Assembly (NCBI GenBank): GCA_963662545.2
Contig: CAXXLL010000002.1
Location: 2,208,001 to 2,272,000, forward strand
Direction of reading: 5' to 3'
Length of the DNA: 64,000 bases
From: Gammaproteobacteria bacterium
GTDB lineage: Bacteria > Pseudomonadota > Gammaproteobacteria > Ga0077536
Part shown: positions 1,377-16,815 of the stretch, piece after piece
Numbering within the stretch: position 1 is the first letter of the stretch
Layout: each line of letters begins with the position of its first letter
The notes under the pieces: model-generated
What the model was told of the DNA's origin: nothing
Database searches by the model: none
Seen by the model: only the letters and a program-made list of their open reading frames with translations
Made by a program: the position numbers and the translations under genes

Positions 1377-3073
1377 GTGTCCGTCCATAAACAGGCATTT
1401 TCTTCGATGGGCACGGAGAAATCGAGGTGTTGAAAGTAGGTTGTTGGAGCGGTAGCGGCGGTTCGGTGGGGGTCGAAGGGCTCTTCGAGCGTAATTGTGA
1501 GTACGTTCGCCGGCCGCAGAGCGCTGCAACCCAAAGTCGCCCGTTCGACGATATCGAGGAGGTCAGTTAGTGCGAGTGAACGTCGCTATTCGAGTTGATA
1601 GCGCGCGAGCAGGCTGAGGTTGTAGGCGACCACAGAAGACCACACGTAGGCTTCGAAGTGCGGCAGGCTCTTCCAGGTGCAACGTGCCAATCCGTATGCA
1701 CGCTTCAGGCAGGAGATACCGGCCTCGATGCCGGCGCGGAAGTTGCGCAAGCGTCGATAGACCCACTGACTCTTGACCATGTCGGCGATCGCGAGCCCGC
1801 GCTTCTTGTGGAAGGCAACGTCTTCGATGCCTTCTGCTTTCGCCGCCCGGAGATTGTCGAGGCTCGCATAGCCGCCATCGGCGGCGACCTGTCGTGGCAT
1901 CGTCCCGTAGTGTGTTCGATGCCGTTCGAGCATCGGCATGAAGCGCTGACTATCGACCGGATTGCCTCGCTCGATGACCACGTCGAGGATGAGGCCACTG
2001 CGCCCCGAAGCCAGATTGATTTTGTGTCCGTACTGAACGTCGCGCGCACCCTTTATGATGATGTCGGTATGCGGCTCGAACAAGCTCACGCACTTCTCGC
2101 TCGCGGGGACCTTCTCACCGCCGAACACCCGCCGCTCAGTTTGCGAAATCACCTGCAGAACAAGTGTTTCGTAGTGCGCTACCTGCGCTAGCCAGTCCGG
2201 CAGTTCAACGCCGGTGACGCCCGGGCTCAGCAGCTGCTCACGTACCCTCGCTACCGCTTCCAAGGTTGAACGCGTCGCCCCAATCAAATCGCGATACAGA
2301 CGTTGGCGTTGCTTCGCACCACGCGCATACCACAGCGCCCGCGCACGCTTCTTCGCCAATCGAGTGTGGTTCACGAAGCACAACTCCGGCGCGCCAGGCA
2401 ACTCGCGCGCCTGTGCGAGCAGACGAACCACAACACGCACGCCATCCCACAGCAGATGACTGTCGCTCGGCGCGTGGATGGCACTGTCCGTTACCGTGCT
2501 ATCAATCCGTACACGCTGTGCCGGCTCAATGCGCGTCTCTTTCGCCGTCGCCAGCAGGGCGCGATGAATAGACTCCCACGTCGATACCTGGATCGCCGAG
2601 ACCACCCGCTGTAAGGCAGACTTCTTCGGACGTTCATTACCCGGCAACCGGGCGAAGGCCTGAAAGCTCGCCGAGTCCTGCAGGTGAAAGGCCAGCTCCT
2701 CGTAACTCAATTGCCGGTGCTGCTTGAGCACCGCGCAGCGCAGCACCGACTCCGCCGACAGTCCGCGTCGACCGGTGGGCTTCAAACCCCGCCGACACAG
2801 ATCGTTCATGACCGGCGTGAGGACCTTGGGGTGAGCATCGAGCCACTCGGACATGCCCTGCAGCTCTCGCCCCAGGTCATGGTCAGCAAACAGCTCGTAT
2901 ATACTCGCTTGGGCCGTGCGTTTCTGACGCATTCCCCCTCCTGTGGTGTCGATGATTGTGTGGAAAATCAGAGGTTTGAAGTTCCATTAGATCACGACCT
3001 ACCGGAGGTTTCGATCCCTTAAGCGACAAATTTTCCTTTTTATTTCAACCGCATCGCGTTTAGGGATGCACAC
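1377..3073 (-). mobile_element. ISNCY-like insertion sequence, copy 1 (1697 bp)
   Basis: Imperfect terminal IRs GTGTGCATCCCTAAA / GTGTCCGTCCATAAA. Flanked by TAGCTA at 1371-1376 and 3074-3079. Near-identical copies at 7388 and 49861. Confidence 0.93.
1586..2932 (-). CDS. DDE transposase, ISNCY-like (448 aa)
   Basis: RIDSTV, AADGGY and RAGIEAGIS motifs (D-D-E). The same protein is encoded by the other complete copies. Confidence 0.92.
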   Translation of the reverse strand: MRQKRTAQASIYELFADHDLGRELQGMSEWLDAHPKVLTPVMNDLCRRGLKPTGRRGLSAESVLRCAVLKQHRQLSYEELAFHLQDSASFQAFARLPGNERPKKSALQRVVSAIQVSTWESIHRALLATAKETRIEPAQRVRIDSTVTDSAIHAPSDSHLLWDGVRVVVRLLAQARELPGAPELCFVNHTRLAKKRARALWYARGAKQRQRLYRDLIGATRSTLEAVARVREQLLSPGVTGVELPDWLAQVAHYETLVLQVISQTERRVFGGEKVPASEKCVSLFEPHTDIIIKGARDVQYGHKINLASGRSGLILDVVIERGNPVDSQRFMPMLERHRTHYGTMPRQVAADGGYASLDNLRAAKAEGIEDVAFHKKRGLAIADMVKSQWVYRRLRNFRAGIEAGISCLKRAYGLARCTWKSLPHFEAYVWSSVVAYNLSLLARYQLE

Positions 3074-7387: not shown

Positions 7388-9077
7388 GTGTGCATCCCTA
7401 AACGCGATGCGGTTGAAATAAAAAGGAAAATTTGTCGCTTAAGGGATCGAAACCTCCGTGGAACTTCAAACCTCTGATTTTCCACACAATCATCGACACC
7501 ACAGGAGGGGGAATGCGTCAGAAACGCACGGCCCAAGCGAGTATATACGAGCTGTTTGCTGACCATGACCTGGGGCGAGAGCTGCAGGGCATGTCCGAGT
7601 GGCTCGATGCTCACCCCAAGGTCCTCACGCCGGTCATGAACGATCTGTGTCGGCGGGGTTTGAAGCCCACCGGTCGACGCGGACTGTCGGCGGAGTCGGT
7701 GCTGCGCTGCGCGGTGCTCAAGCAGCACCGGCAATTGAGTTACGAGGAGCTGGCCTTTCACCTGCAGGACTCGGCGAGCTTTCAGGCCTTCGCCCGGTTG
7801 CCGGGTAATGAACGTCCGAAGAAGTCTGCCTTACAGCGGGTGGTCTCGGCGATCCAGGTATCGACGTGGGAGTCTATTCATCGCGCCCTGCTGGCGACGG
7901 CGAAAGAGACGCGCATTGAGCCGGCACAGCGTGTACGGATTGATAGCACGGTAACGGACAGTGCCATCCACGCGCCGAGCGACAGTCATCTGCTGTGGGA
8001 TGGCGTGCGTGTTGTGGTTCGTCTGCTCGCACAGGCGCGCGAGTTGCCTGGCGCGCCGGAGTTGTGCTTCGTGAACCACACTCGATTGGCGAAGAAGCGT
8101 GCGCGGGCGCTGTGGTATGCGCGTGGTGCGAAGCAACGCCAACGTCTGTATCGCGATTTGATTGGGGCGACGCGTTCAACCTTGGAAGCGGTAGCGAGGG
8201 TACGTGAGCAGCTGCTGAGCCCGGGCGTCACCGGCGTTGAACTGCCGGACTGGCTAGCGCAGGTAGCGCACTACGAAACACTTGTTCTGCAGGTGATTTC
8301 GCAAACTGAGCGGCGGGTGTTCGGCGGTGAGAAGGTCCCCGCGAGCGAGAAGTGCGTGAGCTTGTTCGAGCCGCATACCGACATCATCATAAAGGGTGCG
8401 CGCGACGTTCAGTACGGACACAAAATCAATCTGGCTTCGGGGCGCAGTGGCCTCATCCTCGACGTGGTCATCGAGCGAGGCAATCCGGTCGATAGTCAGC
8501 GCTTCATGCCGATGCTCGAACGGCATCGAACACACTACGGGACGATGCCACGACAGGTCGCCGCCGATGGCGGCTATGCGAGCCTCGACAATCTCCGGGC
8601 GGCGAAAGCAGAAGGCATCGAAGACGTTGCCTTCCACAAGAAGCGCGGGCTCGCGATCGCCGACATGGTCAAGAGTCAGTGGGTCTATCGACGCTTGCGC
8701 AACTTCCGCGCCGGCATCGAGGCCGGTATCTCCTGCCTGAAGCGTGCATACGGATTGGCACGTTGCACCTGGAAGAGCCTGCCGCACTTCGAAGCCTACG
8801 TGTGGTCTTCTGTGGTCGCCTACAACCTCAGCCTGCTCGCGCGCTATCAACTCGAATAGCGACGTTCACTCGCACTAACTGACCTCCTCGATATCGTCGA
8901 ACGGGCGACTTTGGGTTGCAGCGCTCTGCGGCCGGCGAACGTAACAATTACGCTCACAATTACGCTCGAAGAGCCCTTCGACCCCCACCGAACCGCCGCT
9001 ACCGCTCCAACAACCTACTTTCAACACCTCGATTTCTCCGTGCCCATCGAAGAAAATGCCTGTTTATGGACGGACAC
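7388..9077 (+). mobile_element. ISNCY-like insertion sequence, copy 2 (1690 bp)
   Basis: Same IRs, with TAGCTA at 7382-7387 and 9078-9083. Relative to copy 1 it has a 16-bp deletion near the left end and a 9-bp duplication (ACAATTACG) near 8944. Confidence 0.93.
7513..8859 (+). CDS. DDE transposase, ISNCY-like (448 aa)
   Basis: Same protein as 1586-2932. RBS AGGAGG precedes ATG 7513. Confidence 0.92.
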   Translation: MRQKRTAQASIYELFADHDLGRELQGMSEWLDAHPKVLTPVMNDLCRRGLKPTGRRGLSAESVLRCAVLKQHRQLSYEELAFHLQDSASFQAFARLPGNERPKKSALQRVVSAIQVSTWESIHRALLATAKETRIEPAQRVRIDSTVTDSAIHAPSDSHLLWDGVRVVVRLLAQARELPGAPELCFVNHTRLAKKRARALWYARGAKQRQRLYRDLIGATRSTLEAVARVREQLLSPGVTGVELPDWLAQVAHYETLVLQVISQTERRVFGGEKVPASEKCVSLFEPHTDIIIKGARDVQYGHKINLASGRSGLILDVVIERGNPVDSQRFMPMLERHRTHYGTMPRQVAADGGYASLDNLRAAKAEGIEDVAFHKKRGLAIADMVKSQWVYRRLRNFRAGIEAGISCLKRAYGLARCTWKSLPHFEAYVWSSVVAYNLSLLARYQLE

Positions 9078-9324: not shown

Positions 9325-10302
9325 TCAATCAGGAGCAAGCGCCAATATTGCTTTGCGTGTCGCGATCAATCGATCTTCGTTCACCGGGCTCACCGCGAGC
9401 AGCGGCACATCAACCCCGGCGTCGCGGAACGCCTGCAGTTGCTTGCGGCAGTGGTCCGGTCTGCCAAACACGCAGACCTCATCGACCAGTTCGTCAGGGA
9501 TCTGCGCCGCGGCTTCCCGGCGGGTGCCCGATCGCCAGATTTTCTGCACCGCGTCCATCGCGCTCTTGAAGCCGGCGCGTCGCCACTGGCGCCGGTAGTT
9601 GGGAAGTTGGGCAAAGAAGGCGAGGTTGTAGCGCGCGGCGGAACGCGCCGCCGATTCGTCCTCGCTCACGAATGTCGGCACGCTCAAGATACAGCCGAAG
9701 GGCTCGGCGTCGCGTCCCGCCGCAGAGCGCGCCTCGGCGGCGGCCTCGATGAGTTTCGGCAGAGACGATACCGGCGACAGGAACGGCATCAGACCGTCGC
9801 CGAGCGCACCCGCTACCGCCGCACTTTCGACCGTGTTACCCGCGACGTAGAGCGGCACCGGATACCTCGAAGCCCGCAGCTTGAGGATCCCGTTGCCGGC
9901 CTCGCCGCGGAGTGCGTCCCGCACGGTAGCGACATACCGGCGCAGGTTCTCGCGCGCATCGCCCATGTCGATGCCGATCGAAGCCAGCAGGCTGCGATGG
10001 CTCATGCCGAGGCCGAGGATGAACCGACCGTTGCAAAGTTCGGTGACCGTTCGCGCCGTCAACGCCGCGAGGAAGGGGTGGCGCCAATAGATATTGGCGA
10101 TGTTGGTGCCGGTATCGATGTGCTGAGTGCCGAGTGCGATCGCCTCGGCATAGGCGATCGCGTCGCCGCGGCCCTCGTTGACGAACACCGACTCGTAGCC
10201 ATGTGCTTCGGCGAGTTGGCCGATTTCCACGAATTCCAGCGCCGGAGCCTCAGTCACCGTCGACAGCACGATCCCTAAACGCTCGCTGGAGCGTTTTGTC
10301 AT
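9325..10302 (-). CDS. LLM (luciferase-like) class oxidoreductase, possibly F420-dependent
   Basis: AEAHGYESVFVNE, GTNIANIYWRHP, GRFILGLGMSH and VPLYVAG motifs. Confidence 0.88.
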   Translation of the reverse strand: MTKRSSERLGIVLSTVTEAPALEFVEIGQLAEAHGYESVFVNEGRGDAIAYAEAIALGTQHIDTGTNIANIYWRHPFLAALTARTVTELCNGRFILGLGMSHRSLLASIGIDMGDARENLRRYVATVRDALRGEAGNGILKLRASRYPVPLYVAGNTVESAAVAGALGDGLMPFLSPVSSLPKLIEAAAEARSAAGRDAEPFGCILSVPTFVSEDESAARSAARYNLAFFAQLPNYRRQWRRAGFKSAMDAVQKIWRSGTRREAAAQIPDELVDEVCVFGRPDHCRKQLQAFRDAGVDVPLLAVSPVNEDRLIATRKAILALAPD

Positions 10303-10425: not shown

Positions 10426-11190
10426 CTAATCGTCCGTCCCCAGCCAGCCGCCGTCGACCGGCAGGATGGCACCGCTGGCGAAGCTTGACGCGGCGCTCGC
10501 GAAATAGAGCGCCGCGCCGACGATCTCCTCGGGTTGGCCGCCGCGCTCGAGCGCGGCCCGCCGGGCGCGTCTGCCAAAGACTTCCATGTCCCAAGCCTTC
10601 GAGATGTCGGTCAGAAACGGACCGGCCATGATGCAATTAACCCGTACCTTGGGGCCGTATTCTTGGGCAAAAGCCCGGGTGATGGCATTCAGCGCCGCTT
10701 TCGCCGCACCGTAAGGCTGCGCTGTCGGGCTTGGCGTCATCGCCGCCGTGCTCGAGATATTGATGATCGAACCGCCCTCGCCCTCCATCATCTGTTTGCC
10801 GACGACTGCGCTCAGACGAAACGGCCCCTTGAAGTTGAGTGCCACGACCTTGTCGAACAATTCCTCGGAGATCTGTTCCAGCGAAGGATAGAGTGGCGAC
10901 AAGCCGGCATTGTTGACCAGGATATCGATCCTGCCGAAATGGTCGTTGACCGCAGCGACCATCGGATCGAGTTCGTCCCAATGACCGATGTGGCAGGCGT
11001 AGGGAAAGGCGCGGCGGCCCTTTATTTCGATTTCAGCAGCCGCTTTTTCGCATTGCTCGAGCTTGCGGCTCACGATGGCGACATCGGCACCGTGGTCCGC
11101 GAATGCCAGCGCCATCTCGCGCCCGAGGCCGCGGCTGCCGCCGGTAATCAAGGCGACCTTGCCGGTCAGATCGAATAGATCTTCAGTCAT
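10426..11190 (-). CDS. Short-chain dehydrogenase/reductase
   Basis: TGGSRGLG, NNAG and YGAAK motifs. Confidence 0.93.
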   Translation of the reverse strand: MTEDLFDLTGKVALITGGSRGLGREMALAFADHGADVAIVSRKLEQCEKAAAEIEIKGRRAFPYACHIGHWDELDPMVAAVNDHFGRIDILVNNAGLSPLYPSLEQISEELFDKVVALNFKGPFRLSAVVGKQMMEGEGGSIINISSTAAMTPSPTAQPYGAAKAALNAITRAFAQEYGPKVRVNCIMAGPFLTDISKAWDMEVFGRRARRAALERGGQPEEIVGAALYFASAASSFASGAILPVDGGWLGTDD

Positions 11191-11355: not shown

Positions 11356-11858
11356 TTAATCTTCGTAATCGTCCGGCATGCGGTAACCCGTGATGCCCGG
11401 AATGCTCGGCAGATCCCCGCCGCCAGCACCCGCCACGAGCTGGGCCTTGAGCCCCTGCTCCATGTGGTGCGAGATGTCGCAGTGCACGAGATAAGTGGCA
11501 TCGTCGCTGGGCACGATGAAGGTACCGCTCTTCGCCGCCTTACCGTTGACCTCGAGATGAAACATCCCTTGCGGGTAAAGGTAACGCGGCAGACCGTGCA
11601 CCATCCACTGATGCCGAACCGCGTCCTCGTTGGTCAGGGTCACGGTGATGCGGCTGCAGGGCGCGACCCGCCATGCGTGGGCATCGTAACCGAAGGTTCG
11701 CCCGCGGATCGCGTGGGCGCGCCCTACCCGGACGCTCAATTCAAGCTCGTCTGTGATCGCCTGGCAATCCTCCGGCAGCCGATCCTTGTTCTCGTTCATC
11801 ACCATACCGTCGCGTGATGATGATGGTGCGCGGCATCCGCTGGCGTTAACCGAATCAT
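11356..11858 (-). pseudogene. Cupredoxin-domain (type-1 copper) protein, N-terminus apparently frameshifted
   Basis: HQWMVHG and HCDISHHMEQG copper ligands lie in the frame starting at ATG 11805. An upstream ATG at 11858 reads MIRLTPADAAHHHHHA in another frame. No signal peptide is in frame. Confidence 0.6.
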
Positions 11859-12064
11859 AGGGCCGACGCGCGATGGGTTCAAGCCGGCGGTCCGCGTTTT
11901 TCAAGCAATTTCAATGTATTAATCGGCATCAAGAGCAAACCCCGGGGGCGGCGATCGGCGGTGCGATACGCGGTGAAGTTCGCGTCAAGGCGAATCGTTG
12001 CCCGTGCGCGACGCCGGCCGAATTCGGCGCGTTCGACCGCACGCGGGGTCCGCCGGATGATGTC

Positions 12065-12088
12065 AAAAAAAGGGGCCGTCCCGGCCCC
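12065..12088 (-). terminator. Rho-independent terminator of the frhB-like/korAB operon
   Basis: The minus strand reads GGGGCCG-GGA-CGGCCCC followed by T7, about 90 bp after the reconstructed beta-subunit stop. Confidence 0.8.
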
Positions 12089-12174
12089 GCAAAAGAGTTG
12101 CCACCATGCTGGCATCGCGCTGTGCAGCGCGATCGGCACGGCAGTGTGGGAGGAAACAAGTTGTCGTCTACGCT

Positions 12175-13003
12175 TTACCTCATGAATGACTGCATCGTTT
12201 CCTGGTATCTCGCCAAGAGATCCGGCGCTGCGATGTCTTGTAAGGCCGCGGGCGCGAATTCACCCGTACGTGCGAGCGATTCCAGTGCCGGACGCTCGCC
12301 GCGATAGATCAATCCCAGGGGCAATCTCCCGGCGGCGCGGAGTTCATTCATACGCGCGAACGCGGCGGCGCGATCGCTCGGGTCATAGCCCGAATCCGCA
12401 TCGACGTCGTATACCGAAGTCCGCCATTCCCGATAGGTATCGTTATAGGTTACGTCCGTTAGTGGAATGTCTCAAGGCCTCGATGGTGAGCTTGAGCAAC
12501 TGCGCAGGCTGGCCGGTGTAAGCGCGCGCGAGAAAACTGGATCCGGGAATGCTCAAGCCGAGCATGATGGGATCAAAGTCCTCTTCGATATTGTTACCGA
12601 ATCCGGCCGGGCTGGTCGGCGACGGCTGACCTTTGGTCAGGCCGTAGGTGCCGTTTTGCATGACGGTATAGGTCACGCCCGGATTCCGTTTTAAGGCATG
12701 CACAAAATGTCCACAGCCGATGGCGTAGCCATCGCCGTCACCGCCGACACCGATAACAGTGAGTTCGGGGTTGGCGAGCTTTACGCCGGTCGCTGTTGGC
12801 AGCACGCGACCGTGCAGCGCATGATAGCCGTAGCACGTCACATTGTTCTGCAAGGAGCCGGAGCATCCGATGCCGGCGACGATCAGGCGCTCGTGTACGG
12901 GGACTTCGAGTTCGTCTAACGCGTTGACGAGCGCCTGCTGAACACCGAAATCACCGCAACCGGCGCACCAAATCGGGCGAACAGGATCAAATGTATGAGT
13001 CAT
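12175..13003 (-). pseudogene. korB: 2-oxoacid:ferredoxin oxidoreductase beta subunit, frameshifted by an internal deletion
   Basis: WCAGCGDFG, GIGCS, HGRVLP and GGDGDG motifs are present. The frame breaks after EALRHSTNG. The C-terminus (VTYNDTYREW...LPLGLIYRGERP...FMR*) resumes in another frame from 12453 to 12175. The expected segment ending SPC is missing. Confidence 0.85.
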
Positions 13004-14787
13004 GCGACTTCCGCCTTCTGATTGCTAACGTCGTTCGACACATGGTCGACGATGTCTTCTGCACGCATCGGCGTGCCGTCATATTTGAGAACGCTGTCGA
13101 TATGCTTTCTGTCGCCACCCTGACCTATGATCAGATTTGCAAGCTGCGCAGTGGCGTTGTACTCGACGACGTAAACCTTGCGACAGCTGTGCGTGAAAGC
13201 CACGGTCTCATCAAGCATCGGCCACAGGGTGCGTGGCTGGTGATACTGCGTGGCGATCCCTTGGTCGGCGAGCAAATCCATGGCTTCGAGAATGACGCCA
13301 TAAGCCATGCCGACGCCGATGAATCCAATCTCCGCATCGTTCGGTCCATGCGATATTGCGAGCGGTAAATCCGGCACTACAGACCGCATCTTTTCCATGC
13401 GCTTATCCATCATTCGCTTGCGATTGATGGGGTCGGTCGAGACGTGCCCGAACTCGTCGTGTTCGTTGCCGGTGACGAGCCACATCCCGCCCGGCGTGCC
13501 GGGCTGAGCGAATGCAGATACGCCGTCATCACTGAACGCATAGCGTTTGTAAACCTCCATCCCTGCCAGCGTCTCGGCATCGAGGCGTTTACCGCGGTCG
13601 ATGTCTATCTCATCGAGATTGAAGGGATCGACAGTAGCAGTGTTCTGGGCCAGGCCTTGGTCCGACGCAATGAACACCGGACATTGATAACGCGCCGCCA
13701 GGTTCGTCGCCTTGATGGCCAAATGAAAACACTCTTCCGGGTGACTCGGCGCGAGTACGATGCGGGGGAAATCGCCGTGTCCGCCGTACACGAGCAGGTT
13801 GATGTCACTCTGCTCAGGCTTGGTCGGTAGCCCCGTGCTCGGTCCGCCGCGTTGCGCGTCGACGATAACCAGCGGGATTTCCGCCATACCGAGCTGTCCT
13901 ATGCCTTCCTGCATTAGCGACAGGCCGGGGCCACAGGTTGCACACATCGCGCGGGTCCCGGTCAAGGCGGCACCGATCGACATGTTGATAGCCGAGAGCT
14001 CATCTTCGGCCTGACGTACGATGCCCCCAAACTTCGGCATCCATTTGACCAGCCATTCCATGATTTCGGTGGACGGCGTGATCGGATAGCCGGCATAAAA
14101 ACGCCCGCCCGCCACCAGGAAGCCAAAAGCCAGGGCTTCGTTGCCGGTGATCAACATGTGTGGCCGTGCGTCGACGGGAACGATTTCATACATACCGTCT
14201 TCCTTCGTCAGGCCCACTTCATCGGCGAGTGATAATCCCACGGTCAGCGCGTTGAGGTTGTACTTGAGCGCCTGGGCGCCGCGGCGCGAAAAGCGTCTCT
14301 CGAACGCGCGCCGCATCTCTTCGTCGTCGAGACCAAGCAGGCGGCCGATGACGGCAAAGGAAATACTGTTTTTGTAGAGATCGCGTCGGAAGGTGCGCAC
14401 TGCATGGCGGCTCAAGGGCACACCGAACATGCGTGCGCCCTCGGGCACACCGGCATCATCCGGTAGTCCTCCGCCCGAGTTGTCGTAGATAACGACGCTG
14501 CGGTCGTTAAGACGATAAGCATGTTTTTTCACCGCGGCCAGGTCGAATGCGACCAAGAGATCGATATGGCTGCCAATACACAGACGCTCGCCGGCGAATG
14601 CGCGCAAGGTAGCCGCCGTAATTCCGCCCTTGATGCGCGACAAGACGTCGCGTTCGGTGTAGACACGCATGCCGCTCGAGCGTAATACGTCGGCTAACAC
14701 GTTAACGACGGTCAGCGATCCGTCGCCGCCCTGGCCGGAAACGATGACGTTGAGATCTTCCAGCAATGGTTTCGTCGTAGTGTTCAT
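13000..14787 (-). CDS. korA: 2-oxoacid:acceptor oxidoreductase alpha subunit (gamma-alpha fusion type)
   Basis: SGQGGDG, TGNEALAFG, YPITPST, QAEDE and QRGGPSTGLPT motifs. ATG 14787 overlaps the upstream TGA and has RBS GGAG. Confidence 0.93.
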   Translation of the reverse strand: MNTTTKPLLEDLNVIVSGQGGDGSLTVVNVLADVLRSSGMRVYTERDVLSRIKGGITAATLRAFAGERLCIGSHIDLLVAFDLAAVKKHAYRLNDRSVVIYDNSGGGLPDDAGVPEGARMFGVPLSRHAVRTFRRDLYKNSISFAVIGRLLGLDDEEMRRAFERRFSRRGAQALKYNLNALTVGLSLADEVGLTKEDGMYEIVPVDARPHMLITGNEALAFGFLVAGGRFYAGYPITPSTEIMEWLVKWMPKFGGIVRQAEDELSAINMSIGAALTGTRAMCATCGPGLSLMQEGIGQLGMAEIPLVIVDAQRGGPSTGLPTKPEQSDINLLVYGGHGDFPRIVLAPSHPEECFHLAIKATNLAARYQCPVFIASDQGLAQNTATVDPFNLDEIDIDRGKRLDAETLAGMEVYKRYAFSDDGVSAFAQPGTPGGMWLVTGNEHDEFGHVSTDPINRKRMMDKRMEKMRSVVPDLPLAISHGPNDAEIGFIGVGMAYGVILEAMDLLADQGIATQYHQPRTLWPMLDETVAFTHSCRKVYVVEYNATAQLANLIIGQGGDRKHIDSVLKYDGTPMRAEDIVDHVSNDVSNQKAEVA

Positions 14788-16103
14788 GCCGGATTCTCCT
14801 TTTTCGGTTGTGCCTTTTTCTTCGGCGGTGGGGGTGGCAGCGGCCGCCAATCCTTCGCGGAATTACCCTCCTCCCAACCACGATAGTAGTTCTTGGGATC
14901 CAGATTGCCGATTTCCTCGCGCTCGGAAAGCGTCGGCATCAAGGCCGGCAACGGCCGATTACGTTTGTATTTGGATAAACGGATCAGCAGATCTCTGGCT
15001 TTCGGCACTTCGTCCAGCGCCATGATCTCGATCCAACCGAATTCGCGCAGGGCCTGGAATGCCTTGTGCCCCGCTGCCGTTCGGATCACGGTGAAAGTCC
15101 AGCCACTGAGCCCGATACCGCCGAGACCAATGTCGGCATTGTCGGCCGCGTAGTCTTTGCAATACAGACATGCCGGTCGCGCATATTTGCCAAACTTCTT
15201 CAGCGACAGGACTTCCTCGCGGCCGTCCCGCAGGGTGATTTCGACTTTGCCCTTGATGTTGATCTTGGAGATATCACGCCGCAGCACGTCGAGTTCCTGC
15301 GACAGCCAGTCGATGCCTTTCGAGGTGAAAGCCTCAGAGCAGAACAAACCGATGACGAGGCCGATGTTTTCGCGGTACCACTCGGCTACATCGAGTCGGA
15401 TGGCGCTGAACTGCTGCTGGCGCACGCCGTCGACCTGACAGGGCACCCCGACGACTGCGAGCGGGCCAATGCCGCGCTTCATGGCATCGATGAGCGTCAG
15501 CGTATTGGGTTGGTAGGTATATCGCGACCGCACGCTCTGCATCACTTCCTCTTCCGTCGTGGCCAGCCTGGCGTAGCCCATCGACGGATCCTCCGGATCT
15601 TCGTTGCCGACGACTGCTGCCTTGATGGTGCCCTGCTGCATCCCGTGGATGATCAGCGCACTGCAGATGCCGCCGTCCTGTCCTTCCTTGAGGATGTAGT
15701 CCTTGGTGGTGCGCGCGAGTACGCCGTAGGAGTACGGTCCAAAGCCTTCGTCCTTGATCGGTTCTCGCAACCCGATCTGTTCATTCAGATCTTGATCCGT
15801 CGGGCGCAAAATCGGACACGCATCCACGCACAGTTCGCAGAACACACAGGCATCGTCACGCGTGTCGACGGGTTTTTCATCCTCGTAGTCGAAGACATCC
15901 ACCGGGCAAATCGTCACACAGGCCGCGCACCCTACGCATTTGCCGGCATGGACGACTTCGTCCATGAGCATATCGACCGCCTTGAACCCGCCGCGGTTGA
16001 ATTCCGAGCGCCAGGCATAGGCCCATTCATTGGGGTCCGCGCCCTCCTCGACCAGCGCGCGATAGCGCCCGTGTACTTCTTCGGTCAGACTGTCGAGATC
16101 CAA
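14784..16103 (-). CDS. Coenzyme F420 hydrogenase/dehydrogenase beta-subunit (FrhB/FdhB) family protein with N-terminal 2x[4Fe-4S] ferredoxin domain
   Basis: CVGCAACVTICP, CVFCELCVDACP, GQDGGICSAL, VGVPCQV, IGLFC and ACLYCKDY..NADIGLG motifs. TTG start after AAGGAG. Confidence 0.9.
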   Translation of the reverse strand: MDLDSLTEEVHGRYRALVEEGADPNEWAYAWRSEFNRGGFKAVDMLMDEVVHAGKCVGCAACVTICPVDVFDYEDEKPVDTRDDACVFCELCVDACPILRPTDQDLNEQIGLREPIKDEGFGPYSYGVLARTTKDYILKEGQDGGICSALIIHGMQQGTIKAAVVGNEDPEDPSMGYARLATTEEEVMQSVRSRYTYQPNTLTLIDAMKRGIGPLAVVGVPCQVDGVRQQQFSAIRLDVAEWYRENIGLVIGLFCSEAFTSKGIDWLSQELDVLRRDISKINIKGKVEITLRDGREEVLSLKKFGKYARPACLYCKDYAADNADIGLGGIGLSGWTFTVIRTAAGHKAFQALREFGWIEIMALDEVPKARDLLIRLSKYKRNRPLPALMPTLSEREEIGNLDPKNYYRGWEEGNSAKDWRPLPPPPPKKKAQPKKENPA

Positions 16104-16242
16104 AATCGAACTCCTTCGTTCATACGAAACGTGATCAATTTGAGTTTAGGTGTAGTCAAGGCCGGAAACACAGTGTGGAATCGTGCACGCGCGCGGCCAA
16201 AGTCGGTGGGGCGTGGTCGAAACGCGCAGACCCAGCGGAACG

Positions 16243-16815
16243 ATGACTAAACCGGCCAAACAGACCTTGCATCGGGACGGCTGGCTCAAGAAGGCGCTGG
16301 ACGTCCTCTTCTCGCACGGCATCAACAATGTCAAAGTCGAAATCCTCGCACGTGAACTCGACGTTACCAAGGGCAGCTTCTACTGGCATTTCAAGAACCG
16401 GGACGAATTGCTCCAAGACATGGTCGATTGGTGGCGCAACAATCAGATCGGGTTCATCGACGGGCTCGACGTCCTGCACATCACTGATGCGCCCAACCTG
16501 ATCAAGTCTGTTATCGAATTCACGCATCATACCGATGACTCGCGCCACGACGTCGCCATGCGCGAATTCGCCCGGTTCGACGACTACGCGGCGGTCGCCG
16601 TCGCTGAAATCGACCGCCGGCGGATCGAATATCTGTCAGCCCTGTTCCGGGCCGCGGATTTCGACGAAGCCGAATCTCTGCTGCGCGCGCAGGCGCTCTA
16701 CTTCTACCAGGTGGGCGAGTACACGACCTCCTTAAATATCGATTCGGACCTACGCGACGAACTCGCAGAACGCCGTTTCCGGTTGCTCATCACGCATCCG
16801 CAAGATCCCGATTAA
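16243..16815 (+). CDS. TetR/AcrR family transcriptional regulator
   Basis: HTH segment LARELDVTKGSFYWHFKNRDELL. Divergent from the frhB-like operon. Confidence 0.93.
   Translation: MTKPAKQTLHRDGWLKKALDVLFSHGINNVKVEILARELDVTKGSFYWHFKNRDELLQDMVDWWRNNQIGFIDGLDVLHITDAPNLIKSVIEFTHHTDDSRHDVAMREFARFDDYAAVAVAEIDRRRIEYLSALFRAADFDEAESLLRAQALYFYQVGEYTTSLNIDSDLRDELAERRFRLLITHPQDPD

Follow-up and report, generated by a model that had tools for sequence, protein, structure and literature searches.

The 64-kb window analysed here (the whole stretch of 64,000 nucleotides, positions 2,208,001 to 2,272,000 of contig CAXXLL010000002.1 of a gammaproteobacterial genome) contains three co-directional minus-strand genes, frhB-like, korA and korB, which encode a flavo-iron-sulfur protein of the FrhB family and the two subunits of a 2-oxoacid oxidoreductase (Table 1). 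Stop and start codons overlap as ATGA at both junctions, within GCATGAAC at the first, where AAGGAG lies 8 nt upstream, and within GCATGACT at the second. The frhB-like gene has a TTG start with GGAG 7 nt on its 5' side; one strong hairpin (12088..12072) follows korB, and no other strong terminator was found on the minus strand inside the operon. A TetR-family gene (16183/16243-16815) lies divergently upstream, and no hydrogenase or formate dehydrogenase subunit is encoded in or beside the operon, hydrogenase domains being absent from Pfam scans of the open reading frames (ORFs) at 189-37443. In all these respects (overlaps, common terminator, divergent regulator, lack of a hydrogenase) the locus is as an initial annotation, made from the DNA alone, had described it; korB, which that annotation took for one gene of ~312 codons, lies in two frames in the window, where 35 nt are missing. 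We consider it probable, from the comparison of genes and genomes, that the operon encodes a three-subunit 2-oxoacid:F420 oxidoreductase. This proposal, also made by the initial annotation, is supported by the kept gene order and by F420 biosynthesis in the carriers, and neither of the two outcomes named there as refuting (an order that is not conserved, carriers that do not make F420) occurred.

Table 1. Coordinates of the operon, its parts and its regulatory surroundings in the window.
Feature	Position	Strand	Basis
Divergent TetR-family regulator	16183..16815	+	TetR_N 44.2 bits (Pfam); longest ORF from GTG 16183
Divergent intergenic region, presumed promoter and operator	16104..16242	.	Sequence read
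frhB-like, 439 aa	14784..16103	-	PF04422 55.7 bits, PF04432 107.1 bits (Pfam)
Ferredoxin-like 2x[4Fe-4S] domain of FrhB-like (residues ~46-100)	15804..15968	-	Fer4 family matches, residues 50-98
FrhB_FdhB_N + FrhB_FdhB_C core (residues 129-365); predicted [4Fe-4S], flavin adenine dinucleotide (FAD) and F420 site	15009..15719	-	Pfam and NCBIfam
korA, 595 aa, fused gamma-alpha subunit (domains III-I-II)	13000..14787	-	TIGR03710; POR, POR_N
korB 5' part, frame A, 186 aa, thiamine pyrophosphate (TPP)-binding beta subunit with CxxC and GIGC cluster cysteines	12443..13003	-	TPP_enzyme_C 71 bits; PRK11866 profile positions 13-190
korB 3' part, another frame, PFO_beta_C	12175..12471	-	Pfam; parts meet at 35-nt gap ~12454
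Intrinsic terminator after korB	12072..12088	-	7 G-C pairs, loop of 3, TTTTTTT

The three genes travel together. Among 7,895 candidates, 775 proteins belong to the FrhB-like family at E <= 1e-3; the best 120 of these are 60-91% identical and mostly 413-449 aa long, with a few shorter, and every name given to the relatives is a form of 'coenzyme F420 hydrogenase subunit beta'. Scanning species-representative genomes yielded 47 loci (hereafter genome loci; the genomes are called carriers), of which 40 are ~67-97% identical and come mostly from genomes labelled Gammaproteobacteria, Pseudomonadota or proteobacterium, with a few others, and 7 are ~57-60% identical, with labels mostly of Actinomycetota classes and one of Armatimonadetes. 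A second scan, started from an alignment of remoter members of the family, gave 80 metagenome loci. The conservation of the three-gene order, which had been suggested as a check, could be read from both sets. In 44/47 genome loci korA is the next gene on the same strand, the other three loci ending inside frhB-like; 62 metagenome loci extend at least 600 nt past frhB-like, and in 61 of them a same-strand korA comes within 400 nt; the 62nd also has korA and korB, its best korA match beginning 538 nt downstream. The order is kept in gammaproteobacterial and actinomycetotal metagenome-assembled genomes (MAGs) and in metagenome contigs down to ~56% identity. So is the spacing: korA and korB overlap by 4 nt in 70/82 loci, and the distance from frhB-like to korA, extrapolated from match starts, is between -16 and +10 nt in 104/108. 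Because order and coupling recur in well over 100 independent loci, the arrangement is far beyond chance. The identities of FrhB-like and KorA to their counterparts in the window are correlated across 88 loci (r = 0.92), which fits inheritance as a unit and nothing more. Two loci of gammaproteobacterial type, 76-78% identical, stand in MAGs with other labels, one on a 3-kb contig of a MAG labelled Dehalococcoidia (locus L017) and one in a MAG labelled Poribacteria (L021); mis-binning or recent transfer may account for them.

The FrhB-like protein is above the Pfam gathering scores of both parts of the FrhB fold (22 bits for PF04422, 23.3 bits for PF04432), and its architecture consists of a 2x[4Fe-4S] domain at residues 50-98 followed by FrhB_FdhB_N (129-201) and FrhB_FdhB_C (215-365). 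Its beginning, MDLDxLT, is common to the relatives. In NCBIfam it is nearest to FrhB, far below the equivalog cut-off (TIGR03289, 154.6 vs 331.5 bits; PRK09325, 182.4 vs 269). Across 40 family sequences the cysteines expected of the cofactors are conserved: in the ferredoxin domain, which has two CxxCxxCxxxCP motifs, C56, C59, C86, C89, C92 and C96 are invariant and C62 and C66 nearly so; in the core, C222, C255, C312 and C315 are invariant, and their counterparts in solved FrhB chains are the cysteines of PCQ, FC(M/A)E and CxxC. Nor do the K284-G285 turn and G328-G329-I330-G331 vary within the family. In FrhB of M. marburgensis, F420 sits by the S209/V210 loop and the IGKGK turn, as stated in the relevant passage of Mills et al. 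(PMC3591093). Direct alignment to that protein gives IKGK at the turn and, at the loop, G-G-I-G for the G-S-V-G of FrhB. With the turn kept and the loop conservatively changed, these F420-proximal motifs are compatible with F420 binding and do not prove it. Two further segments are specific to the family and absent from FrhB proper: an N-terminal extension before the ferredoxin domain, with the invariant motif DPNEWAYAWR..NRGGF.AVD, and a C-terminal tail after the core, with the invariant motif RPLPA.MP...R...G..PK.Y.

By sequence, the nearest solved chains are 8rja_E (1.4e-38, residues 43-383) and 8riu_B (6.5e-37), followed by FrhB (~1e-37 to 2e-32) and Fsr (1e-29), so that the F420-reactive chains span 1e-38 to 1e-28 overall; FdhB (2.4e-8) and HCAR (5dqr_A, 1.2e-7) are far weaker. 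A Foldseek search with an AlphaFold2 model built from the 40 sequences gave the order 8riu_B (9.5e-22), 8rja_E (1.1e-21), FrhB and Fsr, with HCAR 5dqr_A at rank 13 (2.1e-15). Neither in sequence nor in fold is the protein closer to ferredoxin-dependent reductases of the HCAR/BciB type than to the F420-reactive members.

Its partner is a 2-oxoacid oxidoreductase of a recognisable kind. KorA is above the NCBIfam cut-off for TIGR03710 (581.3 vs 482.75 bits, profile positions 2-560); in Pfam, POR precedes POR_N, that is, domain III is fused N-terminally, and the translation shows the YPITP motif. The best solved relative of KorA is 6n2n_A (3.9e-107), which we take to be from the Magnetococcus marinus 2-oxoglutarate:ferredoxin oxidoreductase; the title of the 2019 structure paper on that enzyme reportedly describes a reverse tricarboxylic acid cycle enzyme making C-C bonds from CO2. 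Those of KorB are 5b46_B (4.9e-47) and 6n2n_B (2.5e-46), and the korB fragment of the window scores 193.3 bits on TIGR02177. The KorB cysteines C13, C16, C47 and C195 (CxxC, GIGC, SPC) are invariant in 32 sequences; the last of them corresponds, in the alignment, to the Cys within LQPCPTYN of the beta subunit of the S. tokodaii enzyme StOFOR and is presumably the fourth cluster ligand. The passages on the S. tokodaii 2-oxoacid:ferredoxin oxidoreductases (OFORs) in PMC5020499 name just the CxGC pair as cluster cysteines, and they explain that, for want of domain V, a large pocket is open between domains III and VI, where an external ferredoxin should bind. KorAB is of this domain-V-less type, and the operon has no separate delta gene. 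StOFOR1/2 (5B46-5B48) and the 6N2N enzyme share with it the fused III-I-II alpha subunit, the domain VI beta subunit, the single cluster and the lack of domain V; they pass electrons to free ferredoxin, whereas here a flavo-iron-sulfur protein with a ferredoxin domain is coupled upstream. The genome also contains a second KorAB (contig 3, 2405375-2407996), 31-38% identical to the operon copy, with a KorA of 590.6 bits on TIGR03710, and tblastn detected no FrhB-like gene beside it. In view of this second, ordinary enzyme, the KorAB of the operon would be an additional, specialised copy.

The F420 reading is supported by comparative genomics. Co-occurrence with F420 biosynthesis, the other check that had been suggested, was followed in the genome of origin, around the loci and across the carriers. 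The genome of the window (5.58 Mb, 3 contigs, 96.85% complete) has cofE, cofD, cofC and fbiC in a row on contig 2 (2028407-2033132), ~175 kb from the window, each above its NCBIfam cut-off. Searches by tblastn with these four proteins placed F420 biosynthesis genes directly beside the operon in 10/47 genome loci (7 of gammaproteobacterial type and 3 of Actinomycetota, where cofE lies immediately upstream on the same strand) and in 9/80 metagenome loci, 19 loci in all. The cofE gene is above cut-off in 45 of the 47 carriers, the remaining two having, respectively, a fragment at the end of a contig and no cofE at all, against 18/400 genomes sampled evenly across the window's class. A class-wide two-by-two table of co-occurrence was abandoned, and the carrier genomes reached through the loci were used instead, since carriers number just two in the 401 genomes of the class sample: that of the window and one other, G302, whose coordinates are those of the genome of locus L033.

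The enzymes known to reduce F420, Fno and Fgd, were looked for as well. Fno (NADPH:F420 oxidoreductase, TIGR01915) is above cut-off in 1/47 carriers, the genome of L017, and the genome of the window is without it (best 21.8 vs 149.8 bits). Among the 16 cofE-positive non-carriers of the class sample, which have no FrhB-family gene, 13 have Fno, usually beside cofE; the two genes lie within ~1 kb of each other in the operon-free, F420-making genomes G219, G371, G361, G205, G098, G029, G385, G010, G011, G230 and G099. Fgd is above cut-off in 0/47 carriers (at most 35 candidates per genome scored) and, with a best score of 68 bits, is also below it in the genome of the window. Likely F420 consumers in this genome are four Ddn-like FDOR genes above cut-off and 54 matches, all far below cut-off, to a model of F420-dependent G6PDH of the luciferase-like monooxygenase (LLM) class, a very large luciferase-like repertoire; many carrier genomes have 50-96 first-look LLM-class candidates. 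A second FrhB-family gene, a 475-aa ORF with an N-terminal Fer4 domain and 30% identity to that of the operon, is present on contig 2 (1385379-1386569; L054:6440-7867). It stands by itself, with a glyoxalase-like gene on one side and SoxY, SoxA and 5'-nucleotidase-C (SoxB-like) genes on the other, and a comparable second copy occurs in G302, in a frame of 597 aa.

Several points weigh against the reading as a 2-oxoacid:F420 oxidoreductase: (i) A genomic association with F420 is no proof that F420 is the acceptor. (ii) The F420-proximal loop has G-I where the aligned FrhB has S-V. (iii) The AlphaFold2 model is mediocre, with a mean predicted local distance difference test score of 67, mostly 70-95 in the core and below 50 in the ferredoxin domain. 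(iv) Even an intact KorB, that of locus L001, is just under the TIGR02177 cut-off (244.2 vs 261.9 bits). (v) The carrier genomes are related, so the co-occurrence counts overstate the evidence and are descriptive rather than a test. (vi) Three actinomycetotal carriers have Fgd matches of 400-418 bits against a cut-off of 420, in a search that scored at most 35 candidates per carrier, and the operon is therefore not their only candidate F420 reducer. (vii) Fno and FrhB genes are both missing from three of the 16 F420-making non-carriers, from which it follows that other F420-reducing routes exist. (viii) In the window korB is split: frame A ends at 12443 after 186 aa, and PFO_beta_C lies in another frame.

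The last of these points raises the alternative that the local copy is dead, the loss of 35 nt being real in the sequenced strain and the operon a decaying relic in a genome rich in insertion sequences (IS). We first read korB as a pseudogene in this organism; that view, for which the shifted frame, the loss of the invariant C195 and two DDE transposase genes within 10 kb can be cited, has largely been dropped and now seems fairly unlikely to us. Relative to locus L001, whose korB, frhB-like and korA products are 97-98% identical to those of the window and whose KorB is an intact 287 aa, the window is without 35 nt at ~12454; the lost stretch encodes HGMAYLEVLSPC and includes the codon of C195. 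Window positions 11900-13400 were compared with Logan contigs of four public runs from four studies. Each run gave one long contig (10,421, 10,421, 13,488 and 10,421 letters) that differs in 0 letters on either side of 12454 (1,501 bases), and all four have 34 letters between the two pieces and one doubled base, that is, 35 nt extra, which restore the frame; the junction of the window was not seen in the contigs of any of the four runs. Moreover, korB is intact in 37/37 loci where both parts are detectable, and frhB-like and korA are themselves intact here. With the 35 nt present in the contigs of four runs, the broken korB does not represent the population and is either a private variant or an error of assembly; since the source of the assembly itself may be among these runs, they do not separate error from variant. 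Other genes of this three-contig assembly may hold similar small gaps.

What we infer for docking, complex formation, electron path, acceptor and direction starts from an intact operon and runs as follows. KorAB, with TPP and one [4Fe-4S] cluster and without a ferredoxin domain of its own, would oxidatively decarboxylate a 2-oxoacid, of which 2-oxoglutarate or pyruvate is the likeliest candidate, to the acyl-CoA. Electrons would pass one at a time from the single cluster of KorB to the FrhB-like protein, where the N-terminal 2x[4Fe-4S] domain would receive them; this is the proposed docking domain, and it would stand in for domain V (the delta subunit) in the pocket flanked by domains III and VI. 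From there they would pass through the third [4Fe-4S] cluster, in the FrhB core, to FAD, which would collect two electrons and give a hydride to F420. Because 2-oxoacid couples (about -500 to -520 mV) are far more negative than F420 (about -340 mV), the reaction would be effectively one-way, towards F420H2. In the carriers the enzyme would do what Fno does in other F420-making genomes of the class, and would supply F420H2 to many LLM and FDOR enzymes. Somewhat more tentatively, though still on balance in its favour, we suggest that this is a widespread bacterial enzyme that couples central 2-oxoacid decarboxylation directly to F420 reduction through a built-in ferredoxin/flavin module, and that it replaces Fno as the main F420-charging system of F420-producing marine Gammaproteobacteria, host-associated ones included, and of some Actinomycetota.

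The module has close counterparts in archaea. Two complexes of the ethane-oxidising Ca. Ethanoperedens thermophilum, an F420-reducing carbon monoxide dehydrogenase (CODH) component (8RIU) and an F420-reducing formylmethanofuran dehydrogenase (Fwd; 8RJA), are described by Lemaire et al. (2024), and the part of that paper which deals with the CODH has its zeta subunit anchored to the partner through the N-terminal domain (PMC11493965). The zeta subunit of 8RIU and chain E of 8RJA have the same N-terminal 2x[4Fe-4S] and FrhB domains as the FrhB-like protein and are its best matches in both sequence and fold; in each case an add-on module diverts to F420 the electrons of an enzyme that is normally ferredoxin-linked, or would do so here to judge by the genes. 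The differences are equally plain: identity is 26-27%; a 2-oxoacid oxidoreductase takes the place of CODH or Fwd as partner; aerobic-type marine bacteria, instead of anaerobic archaea, are the hosts; and the N-terminus is longer by 45 residues in the bacterial protein, which also has a ~55-residue tail, both extensions with invariant motifs. FrhB of the F420-reducing [NiFe] hydrogenase (4OMF, 3ZFS, 6QGR, 9R51) shares the core fold, the cofactor motifs and PF04422 + PF04432; it is without the N-terminal ferredoxin domain, which in Frh is on FrhG, whereas the FrhB-like gene adjoins neither FrhA nor FrhG, its neighbours being korA, korB and the TetR gene.

These relatives also bear on whether the three proteins form a stable complex. 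The same pathway could run without one, if KorAB gave its electrons to a soluble ferredoxin or, in a transient contact, to the ferredoxin domain of the FrhB-like protein; the latter would then be a free-standing ferredoxin:F420 oxidoreductase. Two-subunit OFORs normally use external ferredoxins, as the passages of PMC5020499 on this point state, and the coupling of genes speaks for co-expression, not for binding. This version is nevertheless unlikely in our opinion, as it has to contend with a strict order and overlapping junctions in >100 loci, it leaves the invariant, family-specific extensions at both ends of the FrhB-like protein otherwise unexplained, and in the solved relatives the N-terminal domain anchors the corresponding proteins as fixed subunits (PMC11493965, in the sections on these complexes). 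A prediction of the complex of KorA, KorB and residues 1-115 of the FrhB-like protein, made with alignments and without controls, gave scores of 0.11 and 0.01 against a mark of 0.32, which carry no weight for or against binding.

If electrons do reach the FrhB-like protein, its acceptor could be something other than F420: a small molecule, as in HCAR and BciB, NAD(P)+ or a quinone. The FrhB fold is indeed found in ferredoxin-dependent reductases as well, with HCAR among the fold matches given above (2.1e-15), and the departure of the loop from FrhB, G-I for S-V, would be accommodated. We hold this to be distinctly unlikely, because the F420-reactive members are far nearer by sequence than HCAR (1e-38 vs 1e-7), the operon stands in or beside F420 biosynthesis clusters in 19 loci, cofE is so much more frequent in the carriers than in the class background (45/47 vs 18/400), and the operon and Fno are near-exclusive of each other. 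Fno is a protein unrelated to the FrhB-like one and has a different electron donor; the role proposed is the same, to keep F420 reduced. Fno is present in 1/47 carriers against 13/16 F420-making non-carriers, and in the latter its gene often stands beside cofE, as the operon does in some carriers.

Reverse operation, an F420H2-driven reductive carboxylation of acyl-CoA by a 2-oxoacid synthase for CO2 fixation, is hardly credible: OFORs are reversible with low-potential ferredoxin and the nearest solved relative of KorA is 6n2n_A, but no bifurcating partner is encoded in the operon, and F420, at about -340 mV, would be ~160-180 mV too positive, an argument that Chadwick et al. also make for archaeal clusters in the part of their text concerned (PMC9012536).

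For a 2-oxoacid oxidoreductase joined to an F420 reductase, a precedent exists in print. Section 31 of Chadwick et al. (2022, PMC9012536) describes an FrhB paralogue of ANME-1, FrhB6, that clusters with pyruvate:ferredoxin oxidoreductase (PFOR) genes, and proposes that F420 is reduced by oxidative decarboxylation, in the oxidative direction only. The likeness, drawn from the description, is that of an FrhB paralogue adjoining an OFOR; the ANME-1 case is archaeal, consists of gene clusters only and involves PFOR. Our literature search for a bacterial FrhB-KorAB or 2-oxoacid:F420 enzyme, whose coverage left out most subscription journals, returned archaeal papers only, and a November 2026 review of PFOR diversity (PMC13768988) contains 0 occurrences of 'F420' and 'FrhB'. 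The earlier statement that no complex of this architecture has been characterised accordingly stands for bacteria in the literature searched, and has to be qualified for archaea by the ANME-1 gene clusters. In those parts of the two archaeal papers that deal with it, the add-on F420 reductase is established for CODH and Fwd (PMC11493965) and for OFORs is suggested only from the ANME-1 clusters (PMC9012536).

The operon matters beyond this one locus in that a coherent group of F420-making genomes, mostly without Fno or Fgd above cut-off, carries a conserved three-gene unit instead. Many bacteria outside Actinomycetota make F420, and to our knowledge it is only where Fno or Fgd is present that the way it is kept reduced has been established. 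If the proposed enzyme is real, it would add a new reaction to central metabolism, 2-oxoacid + CoA + F420 -> acyl-CoA + CO2 + F420H2, and would explain the hundreds of 'coenzyme F420 hydrogenase subunit beta' genes in bacteria without such a hydrogenase. It would show a two-subunit OFOR recruiting a dedicated acceptor in place of free ferredoxin, and would extend the modular F420-reductase principle from CODH and Fwd of strictly anaerobic, alkane-oxidising archaea to the OFOR family and to aerobic-type bacteria. It would also give biocatalysis a compact F420H2-regenerating system.

As to the regulation of the operon, the TetR homologue lies divergently upstream in 17/47 genome loci and 7/80 metagenome loci, counts that include loci without upstream DNA. 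Its start is likelier to be ATG 16243 than GTG 16183, because the relatives align only from about residue 21. The intergenic region 16104..16242 gave no inverted repeat of at least 8, that is, no TetR operator candidate of that kind, and the search there for a sigma-70-like promoter site was negative. Four metatranscriptome runs contain just 0.05-0.09 of the sampled words.

The genes around the operon are less constant. It had been suggested that the enzyme feeds nearby LLM and old yellow enzyme (OYE) genes, and neither holds up as a specific client: the LLM gene (9325-10302), whose best matches are F420-type LLM families, all under cut-offs, is adjacent in 1/47 loci, and the OYE-like gene lies beyond IS elements and resembles NAD(P)H/FMN enzymes of the FadH/OYE type. 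Two DDE_Tnp_1 transposase ORFs, 1586-2932 (-) and 7432-8859 (+), of 448 and 475 aa and with nearly equal Pfam scores, are probably copies of one IS element and lie on either side of a block that holds small unannotated ORFs; the common length of three of the four Logan contigs (10,421) is what would be expected if assemblies break at IS repeats. Downstream of korB and on the same strand, a short-chain dehydrogenase/reductase (SDR) gene (10426-11190, -) is retained in 12/47 genome loci at 65-98% identity, which may reflect synteny or a functional link. Between korB and this gene the window has a 182-aa ORF (11356-11904, -) with a weak cupredoxin/multicopper-oxidase C-terminal match (23.4 bits). 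This ORF looks inserted, because the gap between korB and the SDR gene is much shorter in L001 (~216 nt) than in the window (~985 nt), and a 55%-identical paralogue of it is present on contig 3.

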